Origin: Carcharhinus amblyrhynchos
Taxonomy: Eukaryota
DNA: 64,000 bases
NCBI GenBank assembly: GCA_965287045.1
Contig: OZ336885.1
Span: forward strand, 64,108,001 to 64,172,000
Direction of reading: 5' to 3'
The translations under genes were made by a program, and so were the position numbers. The notes beneath the pieces were generated by a model that made no database searches, was not told the origin of the DNA, and was given only the letters and a program-made list of their open reading frames with translations. Shown in pieces: positions 17,515-64,000 of the stretch; positions within the stretch are counted from its first letter, which is position 1; every line of letters begins with the position of its first letter.

Positions 17515-20045
17515 TTGAGACGTAAGTGTCCCTAAGAGAGGGGCTGGGCAGACAGCTTAATGTTCCAGGGTACCTTTGTTGTAGGACAGACAGAGCAGGG
17601 AGAGAGGAGGGGGAGTTGCAGTTTTGATTAGGGAAAACATCCCGGTAATACCGAGAGGGAATATAAGAGACAAATTGGCCACGCAGCCTTCATGGATCAC
17701 ACTGAGACAAGAAAGGAAAAATCACTTTGGTCGCGTTGTACTGTAGGCCCTCAAATGGTCAGCGGGAATTTGTGAAGCGGTATGACTGGAGATTACAGAG
17801 AAGACCGAGAAAATAAAAATAGAAACAGTGGAGGATGTAAACTTTCCCAAAATTGACTAGGGCAGCCAGATTATTGGAGATTAGGACGGAGAGAAATACG
17901 TTGAGTGTGTTCTAGAGCAATTTTTCATTCGGTATGTGGATGGCCAGACGAGAGAGGGGACAAAACTTGGGAAATAGAGACGCAGATAGGTGTCAGAACT
18001 GTTAATGTGGATCACTTTGTGACCAATGACCAGAGCTCTATTAGTTTTAAGACAGCTGTATCGAAAGATATGTCGAACCCAAAAGTTAAACTTCTAAACT
18101 GGGGCAAGGCCAATTTTGGTGGCATTAGGCAGGAATTTTAAATAGTTGACTGGGGGACTCTGTGGGATGACAAAGGAACATCTAGTAAATGGGAGGCTTT
18201 CACAGGTTTATTAACCGGGGTTCAGGGTAAGCATATTGTTCTAACGGTGAAGGCCAAGTCTAGTAGAAGTAGGGTATCCAGGATGGAGCGGGATCTTGAT
18301 GCCCTGATTATGGAGAGAAAAGGGGACACATGACAAGCAATGGCAGCTGGGATTAAGTGAATTCCTTGACAAGTATAAGGCCGTAAGAGTAGAGTTAAGA
18401 GTGAAATCAGGAGAGCAAAACGTGGTCACGACAATGTTTTGACAAATAAGGCAAAGGAGGATACAAAGAGCTTCTGCAAATGCATAAATGCTAAATGAGT
18501 AAGGAGGGAGAGAGTAGCTCCTCCTAAGGTTCAACAAGGTCATCTGTGTGTGAATCCACTAGAGATTGGCGGGATCCTAAATGAATATTTCTCACCACTA
18601 CTTACTGTTGAGGAAAGAGAACTTGGCGAAATACATAGTGAAGCTTGAGGACTATGTATATATTACAGAGAAGGAGCTGCTGCAAGTCTGAAAACGCATC
18701 AAGGTAAATAAATCCCCTGGACCTGATTAAGTGTATCCCATGATATTGTTGGAGGCTACAGAGGAAATTGCGTGTCCCACAGCAGTTATATTTGAACCAT
18801 CAAAAGTCACAGATGAGGTTCCTGAACATTGAAGGATGGCAAATGTTGTGCGGTTGCTTAGAGAGGGCTGCAAGGAAAAAAAAAACAACCTCGATACTAC
18901 AGGCTTGTGAGACTTATATCTGTAATGGCTAAGCTGTTTCAAGGTATTTTGAGAGATAACATCTACAGGCATTTAGAGATGTAAGGACTGAACAAAATAC
19001 CCGATCAGCTTTGTGACTGGAATATCTTGTCTCTCAAATTTGATTGAGATTTTGAAAAGGTTAACCAAGAAGGGAGATGAGGATAGTGCAGTTGATGTTG
19101 TCTTCTTGGACGATACAAGGCACTTGGCAAGGTACAAAATGGTCAGTGTTTGCATAAGTTTAAGTCTCACGGGATCCAGGAAGAGGTAGCTAAATGGATA
19201 GAAAATTGGCTTGATGATAGAAGCCAATGGCTGGTTTTGGATCGATGTATTTCAAACTGGATTCCGTTGACAAGCGTTGTCCCTCAGGGATCAGTGCTGG
19301 GCCCATTGTTATTTGTCATTTATATTAATGATTTGATGTGAATATAGGAGACATGATTCGTAAGTTCGCAGATGACAGAAAGCTTGGTGGCATAGTGGTG
19401 AGTGAAGAAGATTATCTCGAACTGCAAAGGCATCTTGAACAATTGGGTCAGTGGGCTGACAAATGGCAGCTGGTGTTTAATTTATATAAAAATGAGGTAA
19501 TGCATTTTGTTCAATCGAACCAGGACAGGATTTACTCAGGTAATGGCAATGCAATGGGAAAAGTTACAGAACAAAGATGTCTCGGGGTACAGATTCCTTG
19601 AAAGTGGAGTCGAGGGTGGACAGTATGACGAAGAATGCATTCAGCATGTATGGTTACCTAGTTCAGAACATTTAATGCAGGAGTTGGGGCATGTAGTTGA
19701 AGCTGTACAAAACGTTAGTAAGGCCGCACTTGGGATATTGTGTGTATCGTTGTGGTCACCCTATTGTAGAAAAGGTATTGCTAAACTAGGATGAGTGTCG
19801 GAAAAAAACAACTTCCTAGGATGTTACAGGGACTTGATGGTTTATGTTATCAGGAGAGGCTGGAGACTGGCTTTGTTTTCTCTGGAGACTGAGAGGTAAT
19901 TTCAAAAAATGTCAATAAAACAATGAGGGGCATAGAACTGCCAGATAGTCAATATCGTTATTCAAATGTGAGGCAGTCTGAAATTTGGAGGCGTAGGTTT
20001 ACGCTGAGGGGGAGAGATACAAGAAAATCTAGAGGGACATTATCC
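17515..20045 (+). mobile_element. CR1 LINE ORF2, degenerate (AP endonuclease, RT and C-terminal domain)
   Basis: Collinear motifs: QLNVPGY and VNFPKID (endonuclease), KSPGPD, SVVPQGSVLGPLLFVIYINDL, KFADDRKLGG, WADKWQLVFN. Many stops and frameshifts. Confidence 0.9.
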
Positions 20046-29945: not shown

Positions 29946-30261
29946 ATCATAGGATCCTGCAGTACAGAAAGATACCATTCGGCTTATCGAGTTTGTACAA
30001 ATACAATCTCACCCAGGCCCTATCCCCATATGTACCCACTAATCCTTCTAACCAACGCATTTTGGGACACCAAGAGGCAATTTAGAATGGCTAATCAATC
30101 TCGCCCGCAAATCTTCGGTCTGTGGGAGGAAACCAGAGCACTAGGAGGAAACTCACGCAGACACAGGGAGAATGTACAAACTCCACACAGACAGTGACTC
30201 GAGCTGAGATTTGCGACCAGGTTACTGGAGCTGTGAAGGAGCAGTAATACCGTACCGCCCC
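29946..30261 (-). mobile_element. HE1-like tRNA-derived SINE with CR1-type tail
   Basis: Reverse complement aligns along its length with the copy at 59941-60271 (GTCACTGTCTGTGTGGAGTTTG core, GGTTTCCTCCCACAG, GGGCCTGGGTG, tail). Confidence 0.88.
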
Positions 30262-47193: not shown

Positions 47194-49745
47194 ATCATAG
47201 AGACATCGAGATTTTATGAATGTAAACAGGCCCGTCGGCCCAACTTGTCCATGGTGCCCGTTCATAAACTCCGAAGCAACCAATTGACTACATTTGGCCC
47301 GTATCCGCTATAGCCATCTTACCCATGTAACTGTCTAAATGTTTTTATTTTAATACTAAATTGTACCCGCCTCTAGTCGTCCATCTGGGAGCTTGTTCCA
47401 GACGCTCACCACCCTCTGTGTGGAAAAGAGCATTGTCCCTCTGGACACTTGTATCTCTCCCCTCTCAACGTAAACCTATGTCCTGTAGCTTTGCACTCCC
47501 CTACCTTTGGAAAATGATTTGCATATCTAGCTGATCTATGCCCCTCATTAGTTTATAGACCTCTCTACGATCACTCCTTAGCCTTCTAAGCTGAAGAGAA
47601 AAAGGTGCCAGGCTATCTAGCCTCTCCTTATAACTCAAAGCTTCAAACCCTGGTAGCATCCAAGTTAAACTTTCTGCACTCGAAATGTTTAATAAGATCC
47701 GTTCCAGGGCGCACAGAAATGTACACAGTATTCCAAGTGTGGCCTTACCAATGTCTTGTGCAACTTAAACAATACATACTACCTTCTTTATTCAGTCCTC
47801 TGACCAAGAAACAAAGTGTGCTGAATGTCTTCCTTACGACTCTGTCCACCAGTGACTCCATTTTCAAGAACCTATGAACATATACTTGGTCTCTTTGTTC
47901 TATAACAATCCACATGCCCTTCTATTGACTAAGTAAACCGTACCCAGGTTCAATGGACCAAAATGCATCACTTCCCATTCATCTAAATTGAATGCCATCT
48001 GCCTTTCATCATTGACCCACTGGCCATATGATCAAGATTCCGTTGTAATCCGAGATAACTTTCCTCCTTGTCCACCATGCCACCAATCTTGATATCATTT
48101 GAAAAACTTACTAACCATGCTTCCTATATTCTCATCCAAATCTTTAATCTAAATGACAGAAAACAGTAGATCCAGCACTGATCTCTGAGGCACACCGCTA
48201 GTCACAAGCCTCCAGGTTGTTGAAACAACAACACTCTTCAGTAACTCTCTGGCTTCTGTCATCAAATACATGTTGTATTCATTTAGATAGCTTACACTGA
48301 ATCTTGCAACATTTAAACTTATGCAAAAGCCTACGATGCGATGCCGCGTCAAAGGCTTTGTTAACGTCCAAATAGACAATAATAACTGCGCTGTCCTCAT
48401 CTTTTTGTTACCCCTTGAAAAAATCTTACTCAAATTTGTGAGACGTATTTTTCCACTCACAAGCCCATTGTGACTGTTTCTTAGAAGTCCTCGTGTCAAT
48501 ACATGTCTGTAAATCTTGTCTCTCAAAATACCTTTCAACAACTTATCCACAACCGATGTGAGGTTCAATGCTCTTAGTTCCCGGGTTTTCCTTGCAGCCC
48601 TTTTTAAACAAAGGGACAACATTTGCCACCCTCCAGTATTCAGGCACCTCAACTGTGTCTATCGATTGTTCAAGTATCTCTGTCAGGGGACCCACAATTT
48701 CCTCCCTTGTCTATCACAATGCCCCGGGATTCAGTTCATCATGTCCCAGTGATGTAGATATTTAATGCACCTTAAGGCTTCAAGCACCACCTTACCTGTA
48801 ATATTTACAATCTTCAAGTCACCACTATTTATTTCCACAAGTTCTCTGACATCCATGTTTTTGTTTTACTCAGCAGTAAACGCTGATGAGAAATGTTAAT
48901 TTAGGACCTTACCCATATCTTGTGGATCCGGACAGAGATGACCTTGTTGTTCCTTGTTACGTTGTTGTCTTTTGTGTATTTGCAGGAGCACTATGGATTT
49001 TCCTTTGCATTATCTACCAAAACAATCTCCTGTCCCCTTTTTGCCCTCCTGATTTCTCTCGTAACTCGACATCCCCTCTACTCTTCAAGGGACTTATTTG
49101 ATCCCAACTGCCTATGCATGTCATGTATCTCCTTCCTCTTCTTGACCAGGGCCTCAATATCCCGAGTCATCCAGGGTTCCCTAATTCTGCCAGCCTTGCG
49201 TTTCACTCTAAGCGAAATCAGCTTGCCCTCAACACTGGTTAACACACCTTTCAAAAATCCCCATATACAGATGTCCCTTTGCCCTCCCACATACTCTCCC
49301 AACTAACTTTTCAACTTTCATGTCTGGTATCATCAACATTGTCCTTGCCCCAATTTAGAATTCTAACTTTTGGACCAAACTTTCATTCTCCACAACTATC
49401 TTAAAACTAATGGAATTCTGTTCACTGGTCTCAAACTAATTGCTCACTAACTCGTCTATCACCTATCCTTTCTTAGTTCCCAAGAGGAGATATTGTGTTG
49501 CCCCTCTCTAGTCTACCATTCACATGCTGAATAAGAAATTCCTCCTGAATACACTCAACGAATTTTTCTTCGTCTAAGCCTCTACTACCACGTTTGTCCC
49601 AGTAAATGTTGTGAATGTTGAATTTCCTAACTATTGCAACCCTATTCGTTCTTGGAGTTATCTATAATCTCCTTACGTATTTGCTGCTCAATTTCCCGCC
49701 GACTATTTGCGGCCCTATAATACAACACTATCAAATTCCCTCGCT
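47194..49745 (-). mobile_element. CR1 LINE ORF2, long degenerate copy (endonuclease end to 3' tail)
   Basis: Minus-strand ORFs KAGRIREPWMTRDIEALVKKRKE and LNLTSVVDKLLKGILRDKIYRH...WRLVTSGVPQRSVL; tail ATCATAGAG...AACAGGCCCGTCGGCCC. Confidence 0.9.
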
Positions 49746-56089: not shown

Positions 56090-57950
56090 AGTCACACAAG
56101 TCAATGCTCAATCTGTGACATGTGATTAACCTGGGACAATGCAATTCTCACAACCGACTGCATTTGCAGGAGTTTCCTACAAAATGAAATGCTCAGAAGT
56201 CATTTATATCGACGGGAGGACCAAGTGGGTGCACACAGAAGAATGCAATTGACAGACAGAGTCAAAGGCAGAAGTTTTAGAGAGGTGACAAGACATAACT
56301 TTGCGGATGATCAATGGCTCACAGCCACAACGAGTAGGCAGTCACTGCAGGATCCCCTTGAAACTGTTGCTTTTCCTTTTCCAAACAGATACATCGCATT
56401 AGATGTTGTTGGGGAGGACTTCTTACCAGAGGATGATTACAAAAATAGCCAGGGCAATGGCATCTGTGCTGGCTGTACTGTACACCAGGGATAGCAAAAC
56501 TGTAGACACACAATTGTCTTCGGCAATGGAATATGTAGGGGCACTGCCATGCTTTTCTGTAACCGTGACAGTAACTCATGGATTTTATGTTGGCTCCTCA
56601 GTGGCACGGATAAGGACGTCTATCAGCGGGCACAAGGCGTACTGAAGCGAGAGTGTGAAAAACCAGTGGACCTGGTCAATGTTGGAACTAACACCATTGG
56701 TAAGAAGGAAAACGCGGTCCTGCGACCTGAATTCAGAGAGTTAGGAAGGCAGCTGTAACATCCTCGAGGGTTTTATTCGCAGGAATGTTCCCTGTGCCAC
56801 GTCATAGCCAGGTAAATAATACGAATATAATACAGTTTAAAAAGTGGATTGGGAGTTGGTGCAGTATGAAAGGTTTCAAATGTTTCAACCACCAAAATAT
56901 CTTCTGGGGCACATGGGGCATGTACAAAAAAAGGAAGGAATGCATCTTACCTAAAAGGGTCGTAACATGAAAGCGGGAAGATTTAATCATGTACTTCGAG
57001 TGGTTTCACACAAATAAGGCAAGATGTAAGACCCAAGGTGACAGGACAACAAGTCAGCGTGAACAGATGCAACAGTCACTCGAAAAGAAAGTGAAACAGG
57101 GAGGAAAAGTAAGGAGACAAAATGCATATTGAATTTTGCATTTGCTATTCGTTGTAAAGTGCACAGTTATCAAGGATCAAGAAATACCGGTGCAGCGAGT
57201 GAGAGGTAACAAATTAAGACGTATCTGAAGAACTTATAACTAAATGCATGCATTTTTTACAACATAGTTTTAGAGCTGACAGTGCACATTACAGCCAAAG
57301 AGAATGAGATGATGGTGAGAACTGAAAAGTGACAATAAGATAATCCGGCCTAGGAGATGAATACCCCTAGTTTGTCAGTGTTCCGGAAATACAGACGACA
57401 AAGGAATGGAATATGAAGATGGGCGGTTGGTTAAGGATGCGCCAAGACTATATTCAGAAACAATATTGACACTTGAGGACAATCTTGGTGGAAATTAACA
57501 GCACAGAACGAAACATACTATCAGGAATAAATTATAGGCCACAGAACAGCACTTTGAAGGAGGACATTGTAACAACCTGGAAGAGAGGACAGGTTGAAGA
57601 AATAACACAAAAACAATTCGGGTGAATTTTACATGCATATTGACTGAGTTGAACAACTTTACAAGAGTGACCTTGAGTCAATGTCCATAGAATATATCAG
57701 GGACTATTTCCTGGAGTAGCATATTATCGAGGCAGCCATAGAACTGGCTAGTTTAGAACTGGTATTGCCGAATAAGTGAGGATCGACGAATGTTCTAATA
57801 TTTAAGGAGAAACTCGAAAGGACGGATTACTGCTATTATCTGACAAGAAATTTTATGAAATTGGGCACACAAAATGGAAGCAAACTAAAGCTATCCTCAG
57901 AGCCCTCCACTAAAATCACAAAGTAACAGTCACTGATCAGTAGGAAAGAG
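56090..57950 (+). mobile_element. Old CR1 LINE 5' half (ORF1 esterase and ORF2 endonuclease), ending at the ERV LTR
   Basis: FPNRYIALDVVGE, VNVGTNTIGKKENAVLRPEFRELGRQL (ORF1 esterase); degenerate LNA.., VFRKYR and IGINYRP endonuclease motifs from ~57240. Confidence 0.7.
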
Positions 57951-57952
57951 CA

Positions 57953-58480
57953 TGTTTTTAGAATGCAAATGAGGGCTAGCGCATTTGGGAAATTGGACAG
58001 GATGGCACCTACAGGAACTAAATTAAAGAACACATCCCCACCCCATCAAAATCAGCACTTCTAAACCAGTCAAACAACCCATGGAGATACCTAAAATTGA
58101 CACAGTTAAGGAAGCGTCCCTGGCCCCTCAAAACTCATGAGATCAAAAACACAACTGTGGTTCAAACCCCAAAGATTCTAGACCATTGATAAGCAACCAG
58201 ACAAAAACGATTAACACACACTTAAAACAATTGTTCCAACACTCGAAAACATCAAAACGGGATGGCTGAAGTCAAATACTGTAAATAAAGGATTAACATT
58301 TGAAACACGAAGTTCAGGTATAACTGTAGCCCCTTGTGGGAAAGCCTTTAGAACACTTTCAGGACAGGCCGATTTTATGTCCTGACTGTGCTTCTCCGGC
58401 GAGGTAAAGAAAATAAAGCTGTGCCGTTATTGAACTTCACCCTGAGTCCGTAGTGGTCGTTTCGCCCACTCGCGCTAACA
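57953..58480 (+). repeat. 5' LTR of the ERV (5' boundary uncertain)
   Basis: Ends CTAACA at 58480, 2 nt before the PBS; TATAA at 58319 and AATAAA at 58412. The candidate start TGTTTTTAG at 57953 is a guess because the 3' LTR is outside the window. Confidence 0.7.
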
Positions 58481-58482
58481 AC

Positions 58483-58500
58483 TGGGGACTCGTCCGGGAT
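58483..58500 (+). other. Primer binding site complementary to the tRNA-Pro 3' end
   Basis: TGGGGACTCGTCCGGGAT versus the canonical tRNA-Pro PBS TGGGGGCTCGTCCGGGAT, 17/18 identical. Confidence 0.92.
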
Positions 58501-58533
58501 CGCGACCGTCGCTGGAACGCCGTCTCCTGGAAC

Positions 58534-58542
58534 TGGGTGAGT
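58534..58542 (+). promoter_or_regulatory. Retroviral major splice donor
   Basis: TGG|GTGAGT 36 nt downstream of the PBS, the canonical position. Confidence 0.65.
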
Positions 58543-59856
58543 ATCTTAACCCATTTCATCAAATCCGAGGAATATTTGTGTCCCAGTGTCAAAGTGCTGT
58601 TTCACGGCTGCCGCGATCCGAACTTGTGAAAAGGGTCCGTTCAGCAGCTGCACAGCGGTATCGTGGGTTTAAGTTTCTTTGGGGGCCTGCGGCTGGGATC
58701 GCGAACTGCGATTCATTGTGTTATTTTTACATTCCGCTGACCACTGACCAGCCCGACCACAGACTGACTGCTCACTAGGGGACCCGACAGAACAGGTGTT
58801 ACAGGGTAGGAATATTATTCTGGGATTTAAGGTTCAGGGACAGGACCCTGGGATTTAACGTTAAGGAGGACGTCCAAGGTTTCCGGCCACTGGGATCGGA
58901 CTCATCGAGTTCGGTACATGTCTGGGCGCTGCAAGTCGGTGAGGACCTCTGCAGGCGCGAAAGTTTGGGCCACTGGGGGCAAAACCCGCGAGGAATTTGC
59001 CACATGTCCGGGCGCTACTAAGTCTGGAGCCTCTGTGAGTGCCTCGACCACTACAAGCAGGAGACTTCTTCTAGCGTGAAAAAAAAGACTACATATCGGG
59101 GGACTCATACCCGCGGTCGACTGCACGCCAGTCCGCACCCAGGTCCGGGCGACTCCCTGGGAGATAGTGAAACGGCTGCCCTCTGAGAGTCAATTTAGCG
59201 GTAGGAGTTTGGGTAAGAGCTAGTGGCCCCGGTCACTGTCGTCGGTAGCCTCTCGGTATGCTGCGGCCCCTGCGGAGAGGCTGTACAGAGCTCGCCTGCC
59301 TCTGAGAGCGGCAATCTCCCCGCTACACGCAGGTCGGCTCCTGCGGGTTGCCACTGAAGGTACAAACGAACTAACACTGGGAACACGAGACCGTAACCCA
59401 ATCAGACACAAACACAAGTACCTGTGAAAGCGTTAGAGCCAGGGTTGGTACACTACTGACTCTAGTAAAGGAAATTAACATGGATAGCAACAGTACCACT
59501 TTGAATGGGGACCAGAAGGGTCCCTCACCTGCTATCTCGCAGACAAAATAAGAATCTAGTTAAAAATCTACTGAAGGTAATGTGGAATGCATGTTGGAAG
59601 CTTTCTTGTCTGTTGGTAAAGTGGTTGTATCAGTGTTTTGCTTGTTGTTTCTTAATGTTTTAATGTTCTTCCCCTAATTGTGATTTTATAACAGGGGGGT
59701 TTGACACAAAGCTTAAATAAAATTTGGAAATTGGATTGGATTAAATTGAAATAAATTCTTGGAATTTCTTAGCCTTTTGAGTATAATCATGGCCATGATT
59801 GTGCTTAAAATGTATAGAACTTAAATAATATACAAACATGTGCGACTCAGGGATAC

Positions 59857-60405
59857 TGGCTCCCCAAGGAAAAACAAGACTGCAGCCCCGCAAGAATCCC
59901 TCCCTTACACATACGCGGGCCAGTCCACACTCCCCACCGTGGGCGGCACGGTAGCAAAGTGGGTAGCACTGTTGTTTCACAGCTCCAGGGTCCTGGGTTC
60001 GATTCCCGGCTCGGGTCACTGTCTGTGTGGAGTTTGCACATTCTTGTGTCTGCGTGGGTTTCGTCCGGTTACACCGGTTTCCTCCCACAGTCCAAAGGTG
60101 TGCGAGTTAGGCTGATTGGTCATGCTAAGAAATTGCCCCTTACCGTCCAGGGATGCATAGGTTAGCGGGACTAGTGGTATGATGTGGGGGTAGGGCCTGG
60201 GTGGGATTGCTGTTCGGTGCAGACTCGATGGGCCGAAGGCCCTCTTTCTGCACCGTAGGGTTCTATGATCTAAACAATACACCATAAAGCCCGAGGTACT
60301 ACAAGCCACTGAGGAAATTGCTCAGGCTTTGGTTGCCCACGGTATCTGAAGACCCAGTGTCCAACACCAACGATATGGCCAGTTCGTAAGCCAGGCGGTA
60401 CTTCG
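59857..60405 (+). pseudogene. pol: Retroviral pol fragment: RT N-terminus, split by a SINE
   Basis: Removing the SINE gives WLPKEKQDCSPARIPPLHIRGPVHTPH/KQYTIKPEVLQATEEIAQALVAHGI*RPSV/SNTN/IWPVRKPGGT, the QYP...LL..GI.RP..S..NTPIWPVKKP start of retroviral RT. Confidence 0.75.
59941..60271 (+). mobile_element. Full-length HE1-like tRNA-derived SINE inserted in the ERV
   Basis: GGGCGGCACGGTAGCAAAGTGGGTAGCAC (A box), GGTTCGATTCCC (B box), central core and CR1-like tail GCAGACTCGATGGGCCGAAGGCCCTCTTTCTGCACCGTAGGGTTCTATGATCT. Confidence 0.92.
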
Positions 60406-60583
60406 ATAAAAAAGTAATACGCAGCTCCGAAGTTGAACCTTCGACCCAGCATTCTCTAACACTCCGTCTAAGCCTGAATTAAGAGGGCAGGTGCCCCACG
60501 TGACGGCCAGTCTTAAGTGAGTGAAGGACTATTACAGATTTAACCAGTAAATTGGGCCATAAACCCGGCGTCTGTAACACAAG

Positions 60584-61330
60584 ATGGACAAACTTGTAGG
60601 TAGAACTAGAACAGTCTCGGAAATTTTGCTAAAATCTGTGGGAGGGAATTTAGTGAAAACCGGACCCTGACTCTGATCACTTACGTATTCTCAAGGAACG
60701 AATCCTAAAAGGAAATAATTATGGCCTGTCATGCCGATTGGGAGGAAGTTCTCCGTTTATATTTGAATAATAAGTGACCCAAATGGGTACGGTGGGGTGA
60801 TGCCCCGAAACCGGACCAGGGATCCGAGGGAGAGAATTGTTGATTCGTGCCCAAAGGGAAGTGGGTAAAAGGGCTCACAAGCTTAGGAAAATGATTGCAA
60901 TTGCCAGTTGTCGTGAACAGCTCCTTGGTAGAGAAACAGAGATAAAGAAAATGTTTGTTGAAACTGAGTAACGTTATTGTGATTATTAGTTTCGAAGAGT
61001 TACAGTGTGAGAAGTCAGAGAAAATTAAGTTAAAAGAGGAGTTAGAAATTATGACAGCTAGTTGAGATGTTAAGAGAAGGAAATAAGTAATATTGTGGGA
61101 AAGTAGATATGTCGGAACAAAACAATGAGGTAAATATATTGTCTATGAGCCACTTCAAGATATGCCGAGTTACTGAAAAGAATCCAAGTTCCGATTACTC
61201 CAAGTACCAGGAGGAGATTAATCAATTAAAATCTGAAGTTGACAATGCAGATAAGGATTTTGCCTGTGATCAGTTTGGGATAGTTGAGTCTGAGGAAGAC
61301 AGCGTTTATGGATTGGGTTGTGGCATTGAC
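60584..61330 (+). pseudogene. Probable gag N-terminal (matrix-like/coiled-coil) region, heavily disrupted
   Basis: AAGATGG start, then purine-rich broken frames WEEVLRLYLNNK, KLRKMIAIASCREQLLGRETEIKK, EELQCEKSEKIKLKEELE, KYQEEINQLKSEV. Assignment is by position and helical/coiled-coil character; no diagnostic capsid motif seen. Confidence 0.4.
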
Positions 61331-61825
61331 TGGGGATCTCCCCCCCCCAAAAAAAAACACACACACACTTCTTTTTCCGGAGGCAGCTGATCCCACAGTA
61401 AATTTAGAATTTTCCTCTGGTTTGATGTATTCTGTGACTATTAGTTGCAAGGAAGGCATGGAATTACAAGGAGATGTTATTGATTAGGAGGGAATGAATG
61501 TTTTAAAGAACCTTAGCACGGCATATAATCACACCCAAGTGATCCTTTGTTTTTTTTCTAAAAGAGGAAGTTCACAGGGTCTATTACAGGATTTTGAGCG
61601 AAAGAGACTAGTCTCTCAACATATGAGGAAAATATTACCAATTAATTGGCAAGATAGAAGATTGATTAGAGAAAATTTAATTTGAGTTGATAATTTGGAT
61701 AGTTTTTGTATTTCAGTGTATTTGTGCGGCCTGGCTGCTTGTCGACTGTAGGTGATTGTTGTTGCATTGAGGTACGAGCAGAATTGTTAAAGTACACATT
61801 GCTTTACACTTTAATTTAACTTCAA

Positions 61826-62533
61826 AAGGGTGACCCACGATAACATGATCCTGGAAAAGGCGCGGGTTGATCACCACAGGGGCGGGGACGCATTAAGCAC
61901 GAAAATATAATCGGAGACCTGGCAGCTGCAGTCAGGCTGCCCTCAGAATCAGCCGTAATTATGATAAAAGCCCACCAAAGATTAAAGACAGCGGAACAAA
62001 AAGGGAGCCAACTAGCAGACGCTGCAGCCGAGGCTGCAGCTGGGGAAGCTCTCCCGCACATAACCGCTACCACAACAACACCCTTGGAGGAAGTGGATAT
62101 TTATGAGCCGCAGTGTAATGCAAACCCAGATGAGGTGACACACTGGGAACAGGCAAGGGCGTCCAGAGACAAAGATGGAGTATGGCGCAAAGGGCACCCA
62201 ACCCCATATACCTCTGCCAATCATCGATACAGAAAACCGCAGCCCCGGGCAGAACACCGATATATTCCCAACCACCGGTACAGGGAGCAAGATAGAAAGA
62301 ACCCCAGATATGCACCCCTACAAGTGCAGTCTTACACCTGCGGGCAACCCAACCATTTTGCCCGGAACTGCAGGGTACCACCCCACTACCCTACACGACT
62401 ATCTCAGCAATTCCTTGACGATGGACCCCAACCCATGCCCCTCGAAGGACCTGCCCAACAAGAAGCTACAACCCCCACCCACTACCCACAGAACCGGCAC
62501 ATGAACCCACTGATCCCGCGCCAATTTACATAG
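61826..62533 (+). pseudogene. Chimeric frame: RNase H C-terminal half and linker fused to a Gag nucleocapsid-like region
   Basis: THD..SWKRRGLITTG/GRIKHENIIGDLAAAVRLPSESAVIMIKAHQRLKTAEQKGSQLADAAAEAAA (RNase H), EVTHWEQARASRDKDGVWRKG (RH-IN linker), then SYTCGQPNHFARNC (CCHC knuckle with first Cys as Ser) and a TAG stop at 62531. Confidence 0.8.
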
Positions 62534-62814
62534 CTTCAGGAATAAAACTTCGACCCAGCAGGCGCCGACGAAAAGGTTGGGGTACCCCGCAAATCTTACT
62601 CCCTGTGGCGCACCGGTACCGTTGCTCCCAGAAAGGTTAGACCCGGCACTCACTACAAAGAGGTTTCCTGGCAGTCAAAGCCCGCCCTCGTAGGTTCCCT
62701 TCACTAAGGAACGATCAGGGCATCACAGTCTAGTTTGTAAATCGCTTTATCCGCCCACTCCACGCCCCCACTCCAGTATAAAATGAAAAAAAAAAGTGCA
62801 ACAGTTAGACCACC

Positions 62815-63075
62815 AACTCGGAGAGCTGCGCCACACAGGCAGAGGTCAACAGGATATAAAAGACAAGGTTAGTAAACATGCCATCTGCTATACCACCACA
62901 CTTCCCCAGGCAGGGGACAAATTTTTGGTCTGAGTTGCCCCCGATCAAACAGGGTTCGCATCCGAAATGGGTAGGACCCCATGAAATTATGCTCACTAGC
63001 GACACATATGCCTGTGTTGACATCAAATGGAAAGGCCGTTGGAGACACTGTTCACAGCTGAAGGCATACCACCCC
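62815..63075 (+). pseudogene. pol: Retroviral integrase C-terminal domain fragment
   Basis: ORF 62878..63174 gives PKWVGPHEIMLTSDTYACV...WRHCSQLK, the W.GPY.V+LT..T...W.H.S.+K motif of gamma/epsilon-like integrase CTDs; no DDE core upstream. Confidence 0.8.
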
Positions 63076-63078
63076 GGC

Positions 63079-63104
63079 GGGGGGGGGGGGGGGGGGGGGG
63101 GGGG
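63079..63104. repeat. Poly-G tract (26 nt)
   Basis: Directly visible just after the integrase CTD motif; length may be unreliable in sequencing. Confidence 0.9.
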
Positions 63105-63413
63105 TCGTGGAGCTGGGGAGGGGGGAGAGACAGGACAGACTGACTGTAAGGACAAGAGTAGTCCATCAGGATAAACGGGCCACGTATCGAACCATAACTA
63201 ACCACCTCTATCCACACAGCGGAGATCGAATTAACAACCTTCATCTCTAGGACGGAGGACAGCCACACATCAGCCACGGCTCTAATATGTGTATGTATGC
63301 ATGTAGATGTAGAGGCATGCCTAAGTAGATTAGTTTAGAGTGATTAGTTAATATTAAGATTCTAATACCTGGCGGCCACCAGGCTTTGTGTACACTTCCT
63401 ACCCCTCTCCAGG

Positions 63414-64000
63414 ATGATAACCAGTTTGAGGGTGGCCCTATCCGTGATCTTCTTGTCCAGGTTCGCCATCCAGGGATACATCACCAATCAATAATCCCAC
63501 GGAATAATATTCAATACGTCCGAGGCGTTGTGCGTGCCGGCAGCACCATGCCCCGAGGACAACAGCATGTATTCCAATGCATGGCTACAAGTCCACACAG
63601 GTCTCGATATGACATGCTTCATCTGCACATTGGATAAGACCCAAACATGTATCCAACGGCCAGACTGGCTGAGCGACTCCGGCTGCAACTTTGGGACGAT
63701 CTGCGCGCTTCCCGAGGACCCACGGATCCAGCCACAAAGAGGCATTTTGAAACCGGACACTGATATTTGCGGGTACTATGGACTAGTTGAGGCTCCGGTC
63801 GTCTCACTATATGTATGTTTTGCACTTCCTACAACGCGGGCCTCCTGACCACGACGCCCGAAATCTTACCCTGCCCCTTGCTGAGCGGTAGGCCGGAGGG
63901 AGGACTGATGTTGTGGAGCGAGGGAGAAATTGTATTTGACAATGTGAAAGACGAAATCGTGCCTGTTCCTGTCGATATCTCAGGGATCCAGGTACTGGGA
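63414..64000 (+). pseudogene. env: env-like glycoprotein gene, 5' part, disrupted
   Basis: Acceptor CTTCCTACCCCTCTCCAG|G then ATG. MITSLRVALSVIFLSRFAIQG is signal-peptide-like. After an in-frame TAA at 63492 the same frame continues as Cys-rich ORF 63528..63848 (N-T-S sequon just before it), then frameshifts into GGLMLWSEGEIVFDNVKDEIVPVPVDISGI. It lies downstream of the integrase. Confidence 0.65.

Follow-up and report, generated by a model that had tools for sequence, protein, structure and literature searches.

How can an endogenous retrovirus (ERV) come to read reverse transcriptase (RT) ahead of gag, and RNase H ahead of nucleocapsid (NC)? The question is raised by positions 58,483 to 64,000 of a 64,000-nucleotide stretch of the shark Carcharhinus amblyrhynchos (assembly GCA_965287045.1, contig OZ336885.1, positions 64,108,001 to 64,172,000 of the forward strand; hereafter the window). 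An earlier note, made from the letters alone, had described an RT start, a gag-like region, RNase H, NC, the end of integrase (IN) and env, all on one strand, and had proposed that template switching gave rise to a non-autonomous mosaic, in which capsid, protease (PR), the RT core and the IN core were lost while env and the cis signals were retained. The layout is confirmed, and the proposal is the one we favour. The element is very probably a helper-dependent ERV, assembled by stepwise template switches between co-packaged RNAs of three lineages and carried to dozens of sites by helpers of its own backbone family, which we call F1.

We identified the pieces by tblastn and DNA comparison with intact relatives from the same genome. 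On the plus strand, tblastn places the RT start at 59872-59940 and 60272-60367, the gag N-terminus of a second family, F2, from 60709, RNase H and its linker at 61880-62202, the F2 gag C-terminus at 62177-62488 and the IN end from 62787. The profile search suggested as a check recognized less: across six frames of the window, the sole Pfam match was the zinc knuckle zf-CCHC (E 1e-4 to 8e-4), and the RVT_1, RNase_H and IN C-terminal models left the window fragments unmatched. Their identities therefore rest on the relatives, which do match RVP, RVT_1, RNase_H, rve and Integrase_H2C2. An Rfam search gave no match. Lacking F1 gag, PR, RT core and IN core, the window element does not have the gag-pro-pol-env set of an autonomous retrovirus.

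A genome search with 58100-64000 scored 36 candidates and gave 99 matches, which, the window itself aside, are 80-92% identical to the query; from the top matches we took a non-random sample of 77 stretches (loci L0xx). Eleven of these (L033-L043) share the window's long terminal repeat (LTR) and leader but hold parts of a canonical interior; they define F1, and L033 and L034 encode a two-knuckle gag together with RVP, RVT_1, RNase_H, Integrase_H2C2 and rve domains. The F1 remnants of the mosaic (LTR, tRNA-Pro primer-binding site (PBS), leader, RT start, RNase H, IN end and env) are collinear with canonical gag-pro-pol-env F1. The idea of a mosaic thus survives and that of shuffling does not: the F1 pol remnants remain in canonical order, and what interrupts them is foreign. 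Three F1 intervals, gag-PR, the RT core and the IN core, have been replaced by DNA from F2 and from a third lineage, F3b. The replacing DNA gave no match to F1 gag, which aligns to F2 and F3 gag at the knuckle only.

The donors also exist apart from the mosaic, each family having LTRs and a primer site of its own. F2 (L054, L058, L059 and others) has LTRs of 810-850 bp, a 684-aa gag and env. F3 (L066, L067, L051, L052) encodes a gag of ~700 aa, 43-46% identical to that of F2, and F3b (L068, L071-L075) combines F3 LTRs with a decayed gag (L073 against F3 gag aa 1-292: 30% identity, E 1.5e-28). Compared with host tRNAs, the primer sites correspond to tRNA-Pro in F1, tRNA-Arg(CCT) in F2 (15-17 of 18 nt in seven copies) and tRNA-Asn in F3. 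RT in the F2 loci L060, L062 and L065 is 38-39% identical to F1 RT. In a similarity ranking, F1 RT scores 215-220 bits against p80-type RT structures and 123-124 against Pr125Pol, which we take to be murine leukaemia virus and foamy virus, respectively; F2 RT scores alike against both.

If the foreign pieces entered during reverse transcription, the joints should be informative, and we found two kinds of signal in them. Donors overlap at the nine joints by 4, 7, 8, 8, 6, 4, 8, 2 and 9 nt. Five overlaps reach at least 7 nt (P about 5e-4 per joint), where random joining averages less than 1 nt. The nine overlaps include AAGG and GTGGGAT at the ends of the F3b filler (59578..59846) and the 8 nt AGGGCACC at the RNase H/NC joint, J4. 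The other signal is position. At the RT/F2 gag joint, J2, slot 2 (the F2 leader-gag piece) starts at nt 8-15 of the F2 PBS. At J5 in sister copies, slot 3 (the second F2 piece) ends with 133 nt of F2 U5 and PBS nt 1-9, the latter matching TGGCACCCC in F1 IN, a motif present in IN of five of the six F1 copies checked. Two of six F2 ends therefore fall inside the 18-nt PBS of an element of ~6,900 nt (chance near 1e-4). The PBS is the endpoint of minus-strand copying and the annealing place of plus-strand transfer, and this role is the main reason for which we prefer reverse transcription over host DNA repair. Together, the short overlaps and the two joints in the F2 PBS point to template switching by RT. 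Every foreign piece in the mosaic lies in sense orientation.

Searching the genome for the joints as motifs revealed that they recur, as in the multicopy case that the note had raised. J2 was found at 40 places spread over 19 contigs and J4 at 31 places on 15 contigs, 25 of the latter at most 6 kb from a J2; reversed control motifs gave 0 matches. Both ends could be mapped for 19 F1-LTR elements, of which 11 are flanked by an exact 4-5-bp target duplication, with an LTR divergence of 1.9-6.2%. Many copies hold identical joints, and the integrations are independent. Each copy begins and ends in the same LTR; inside, most sister copies also contain the 133 nt of F2 U5, which is absent from the window copy. 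By the marks of reintegration used for human mosaics (PMC4724089), namely the same internal mosaic, all in sense, with different flanks and in several copies, the family was copied after its formation. Since these elements bear target duplications despite lacking enzymes of their own, we infer mobilization by helpers. F1 RT cores have at least 40 matches in the genome (all 40 scored of 146 candidates), and helpers were therefore plentiful. Near-identical copies also cluster on contigs C13 (10 mosaic joints) and C48 (many F1 RT matches), suggesting segmental duplication or tandem arrays.

The sampled loci include forms whose modules differ from those of the window copy. We counted 17 short forms with NC (the window type), 5 long with NC, 7 long with IN, 1 short with IN, 1 with an RT core and NC, 2 with filler and an RT core, and 2 with F3b without F2 (L069, L070). 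The last two share a 1.5-kb segment (L069 2757-4237, L070 2896-4409) that has no match in the other sampled loci. The short form is defined by a ~670-bp deletion at the left edge of the F3b segment, and L024, L025, L027 and L028 represent the long form. In an F2-rooted leader-gag tree of 42 rows, the mosaics form a single clade (100/97), three long IN-bearing forms diverge first (98/92, 95/87) and 17 of 21 short forms group together (90/88). In an IN tree of 14 rows, four long forms separate from F1 (100/97), and L028, L044 and L085 fall among F1. From the module tables and these two trees, slot 2 was probably filled before slot 3, the 670-bp deletion probably came last and back-crosses to F1 probably kept occurring. 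Env trees interleave the structural classes, and the short-form label is unclustered (208 and 299 of 500 shuffles as low). Gene conversion may explain part of this mixing, because in two of the three well-supported pairs that join different structures (L035/L047, L030/L028) the partners share a contig and are separated by ~1 Mb.

These forms suggest an order of events. First, F3b pieces would have taken the place of F1 gag-PR and of the sequence on the RT-core side of RNase H. The F2 PBS, leader and gag start would then have been added by a switch in the PBS, where minus-strand copying of F2 RNA lacks further template. Later, F2 NC and a U5-PBS stub may have replaced IN through the 9-nt PBS look-alike in F1 IN, a step resembling the expected product of aberrant strand transfer. 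The 670-bp deletion would finally have given rise to the short form, the commonest among the sampled loci. As the mosaic encodes neither enzyme nor capsid, its packaging and copying would have taken place in trans. Replication requires only LTRs, PBS, packaging signal and polypurine tract, leaving the interior free to be a patchwork, and splicing to an env mRNA would take out 58537-63412, which is the entire patchwork.

Selection appears to have treated env and the interior differently. We compared codon positions of variants common to at least 3 copies, with CpG columns dropped, in 26 mosaic loci (4 near-duplicates excluded; 19-25 per region after a coverage cut). Env variants fall 7/15/26 by codon position (26 of 48 at the third; p 0.0013), and inner-piece variants 19/16/13 (13 of 48; p 0.85). 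The controls gave p 0.045 for F1 gag, p 0.009 for IN and p 0.53 for the leader. This pattern suggests that the inner pieces evolve neutrally and that env has been kept; its putative splice sites are conserved as well (Table 1). We also tried the open 220-aa frame across RNase H and NC (61871-62533) as a functional fusion and rejected it, having found no third-position excess; in a protein search it drew two matches covering 41-42%, neither extending across the joint by the lengths searched. The window env is itself disrupted by frame changes and a LINE, and judged by the span examined, no sampled mosaic copy has a whole open env. Its homologues are shark sequences (51-81%). It has class I fusion-protein, F-protein-like features at a weak level of recognition (1433, below the 2300 mark), and a PDB search gave no match. 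The env genes of F1, F2 and F3 are homologous (F1 against F2 about 33%), with an RxKR site and F-protein-like features, and are Pfam-negative; their homology contrasts with the distant gag and RT.

Several observations weigh against the account given so far. The overlap donors were hand-picked among sampled copies, which makes the P values optimistic; the J4 overlap is found with L058 and not with L054, L059 or L053; and microhomology is a mark of host repair too. Support is weak for most branches of the trees, two bootstraps remained unsettled, and the order of the first step depends on L069 and L070, the two loci with the unmatched 1.5-kb segment. In the codon-position test, the RT-core positive control was not significant (5/10, p 0.21), and F1 may be the source of the env signal. 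The remaining 8 of the 19 mapped elements have no exact target duplication (LTR divergence 3.9-18.8%, one unmeasured), and 10 of the 40 J2 places sit in one duplicated-looking 0.7-Mb cluster (G000:C13:78.7-79.4 Mb); DNA-level recombination and duplication therefore added copies.

Might the joints themselves have been made in DNA, by nested insertions with microhomology deletions or by ectopic gene conversion in the germ line, and been retrotransposed afterwards? A true F2 LTR end does precede J5, two of the three well-supported mixed pairs are contig neighbours, and elements without target duplication tend to higher LTR divergence. Yet this LTR end is followed by PBS bases and no target duplication, with just 133 nt of U5; slot 2 begins within the PBS, a landmark only of reverse transcription; and four foreign pieces all lie in sense, each in place of F1 sequence. 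Such a route accounts better for later reassortment of modules than for their origin, for which we consider it unlikely. We put still less weight on a single round in which both F2 pieces were delivered by the same molecule, a complete F2 minus strand or a circle with one LTR, running from the PBS round to U5-PBS, and the IN-intact forms arose by later back-crosses. Slot 2 starting at PBS nt 8 and slot 3 ending at PBS nt 9 would fit this well, and L028, L044 and L085, with F1-type IN and RNase H, demonstrate that back-crosses happen; however, long IN-intact forms are basal in the F2-rooted tree, four have an IN lineage of their own, and a particle would need three different RNAs. Repeat misassembly, or one genome scrambled within itself, is the explanation to which we give almost no credence. 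The terminal branches of the window copy are long and its LTRs diverge by 8.8%, but misassembly is very unlikely because the same joints recur on 15-19 contigs in copies 84-91% alike, and self-scrambling was rejected since the gag pieces find no match in F1 gag. A search for sequencing runs listed 19, none of which shared half of the query words, and no RNA run was listed.

Stepwise template switching, our preferred explanation, can be extended, although we doubt that the extension is right. The PBS might serve as a repeat-use joint between distant lineages, with the F2 PBS-leader acting as a second packaging signal, so that the mosaic rides F1 and F2 particles and supplies env in trans. If true, dual F1/F2 packaging would explain the second F2 capture and the expansion of the mosaic, which would then be the env supplier among complementing defectives (pol-bearing F1 and the pol-less gag-env F2 and F3).

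The window copy is a provirus (Table 1) whose element ends ~6.9 kb beyond the window, behind a 4.6-kb LINE. Its 3' LTR partner and a 4-bp CTGC target duplication lie past the window end, and the pair differs at 57 of 647 sites. It shows a like LTR pair, TG...CA ends and target duplication, except that the window 5' LTR begins TA, and its PBS is complementary to the host tRNA 3' end. Before the 3' LTR we found just a short purine-rich run at the position of the polypurine tract, and the rest of env is seen beyond the window, interrupted by the LINE. Closer mapping revised several boundaries. The RT start, first read as continuous over 59857-60405, is split by a 334-bp insertion that had gone unnoticed; it has reverse-complement relatives at 30004-30251 and is presumably a shark SINE. 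In the gag-like region placed at 60584-61330, F2 gag begins only at ATG 60721, as 60391-60720 is F2 PBS half and leader. DNA formerly left unassigned now proves to be F3b-derived, as does 59578-59846; the F3b segment is a decayed gag coiled-coil region to about 61460 and thereafter F3b DNA to which no coding role is assigned. The zinc knuckle (zf-CCHC, E 1e-4) has lost its first cysteine, and the F2 gag stop is at 62531-62533.

Table 1. Pieces of the mosaic provirus in the window, in order along the plus strand.
Feature	Position	Strand	Evidence or remark
5' LTR of backbone family F1, 647 bp	57834..58480	+	matches both LTRs of other copies
Primer-binding site, tRNA-Pro	58483..58500	+	17/18 nt complementary to host tRNA-Pro 3' end, read by eye
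F1 leader and start of F1 gag (ATG 59480; ~33 codons)	58501..59577	+	89-91% to canonical F1; tblastn F1 gag aa 7-28
Splice-donor-like GTGAGT in F1 leader	58537..58542	+	GT in 28/32 mosaic and 11/11 F1 copies aligned
Non-coding F3b filler in place of F1 gag-PR	59578..59846	+	82-85% to L068, L071, L072, L075
F1 PR-RT boundary remnant, ~100-nt internal deletion	59840..59937	+	
Copy-specific SINE-like insertion, 334 bp, foreign to ERV	59938..60271	+	other aligned copies empty at site
F1 RT N-terminal remnant	60272..60398	+	82-83% DNA, 72% aa to F1; RT start 82-85% DNA
Joint J2, 8-nt overlap: F1 RT / nt 8-15 of F2 tRNA-Arg PBS	60391..60398	+	
F2 PBS half, leader, gag N-terminus (ATG 60721)	60391..60935	+	88-90% to L054, L058, L059, L060
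F3b segment	60930..61830	+	80-83% to F3b loci
C-terminal part of F1 RNase H, with the linker to IN	61828..62198	+	87-88% DNA, 74% aa to F1
F2 gag C-terminus, one knuckle, post-gag DNA; in place of F1 IN zinc finger and core	62191..62765	+	82-85% to F2, two overlapping pieces
J5 site; ~133 nt F2 U5 and PBS nt 1-9 in most sister copies, deleted here	62766..62777	+	
F1 IN C-terminal remnant	62778..63174	+	84-88% to F1; tblastn to F1 IN
Splice-acceptor-like pyrimidine tract and CAG directly 5' of env	63399..63412	+	in 32/34 mosaic and 5/7 F1 copies aligned
F1 env 5' part, continuing past the window	63414..64000	+	91% to F1

Other features accompany these families. The LINE in the env of the window copy is apparently near full-length (L013 8208 to L076 2833), and several other copies are interrupted by similar LINE open reading frames. 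A long G run follows IN at 63077-63105, and sister copies have variable C-rich expansions at J5; both features differ between copies. An old inverted repeat pair elsewhere in the window (18011-19335 and 48137-49440, 71-78% alike) probably consists of LINE fragments. F2 elements are mostly ~6.9-kb LTR-gag-env-LTR units without pol (L054, L058, L059), pol pieces occurring only in L060, L062 and L065; tblastn found no pol in F2 loci L048 and L053 or F3 loci L049 and L050. F2 gag shows Ty3/retrotransposon-gag-like features and F1 gag does not. The F3 elements (L066 944-6289, L067 937-6910, L051, L052) are young, with LTR pairs 99-100% identical and open gag of 550-703 aa, a partial env, a tRNA-Asn PBS and space insufficient for pol; a pol-bearing F3 partner was not seen among the sampled loci. 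F2 and F3 also share a ~90% identical block over the gag end and env start (L054 5308-6668 against L051, L052, L066 and L067), the rest of gag being ~66% alike, which we read as another recombination between F2 and F3.

The category to which this element belongs was already known: multi-donor, env-keeping, reintegrated mosaics are represented by Harlequin human ERVs and recKoRV. Harlequin proper has a HERV-E backbone with LTR2. Vargiu et al. 2016 (PMC4724089) proposed co-packaging and polymerase jumps for Harlequin and suggested that its env acts in trans. Like the shark family, Harlequin has one backbone, its own LTRs at both ends, many copies, a prominent env and other genes defective; unlike those of the shark mosaic, its donors are human class I elements, mostly related, and the relevant passages of the main text, supplements aside, do not describe a gag-inside-pol order, donor-PBS joints or base-level intermediates. 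In recKoRV, the retroviral ends are kept around an interior from an unrelated ERV; 5 of 17 breakpoints show microhomology, and the element has target duplications and was remobilized (Loeber et al. 2018, PMC6112702). The shark mosaic likewise has its interior replaced by unrelated ERV sequence with breakpoint microhomology; recKoRV has a single donor (PhER), and the term 'primer binding' is absent from its main text, whereas the shark mosaic has two foreign donors, four pieces and a retained env. Deletion joints at the PBS of HIV-1 proviruses are ascribed to faulty second-strand transfer (Hardy et al. 2025, PMC12657518); those joints are somatic and within one virus, whereas the shark joints lie between families and were fixed and amplified in the germ line. 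The F-protein-like env features, weakly recognized here, resemble those of Lokiretroviruses (PMC7947760) and class I anamniote ERVs (bioRxiv 10.1101/2021.11.23.469661); in fish ERVs, env and pol are often incongruent, and F-like env is widespread (PMC13524379).

The shark family is not described in the literature searched, and may be catalogued in Repbase/Dfam or the subscription papers, most of which lay outside that search. New relative to that literature are the foreign gag in pol, the two donor-PBS joints, the three primer tRNAs and the surviving intermediates in a shark. The mosaic encodes neither a new protein nor a new pathway. What it offers is a natural series of parent, donors, intermediates and back-crosses, a base-level record of how a non-autonomous ERV was assembled from families with RTs 38-39% alike and three different primer tRNAs. 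It yields a testable rule for other mosaic ERVs, that joints cluster at donor PBSs, and a caution that elements of this sort are misread when annotated by domain order or classified by pol. By analogy, the shark mosaic appears to work like Harlequin and recKoRV while being a member of neither family.

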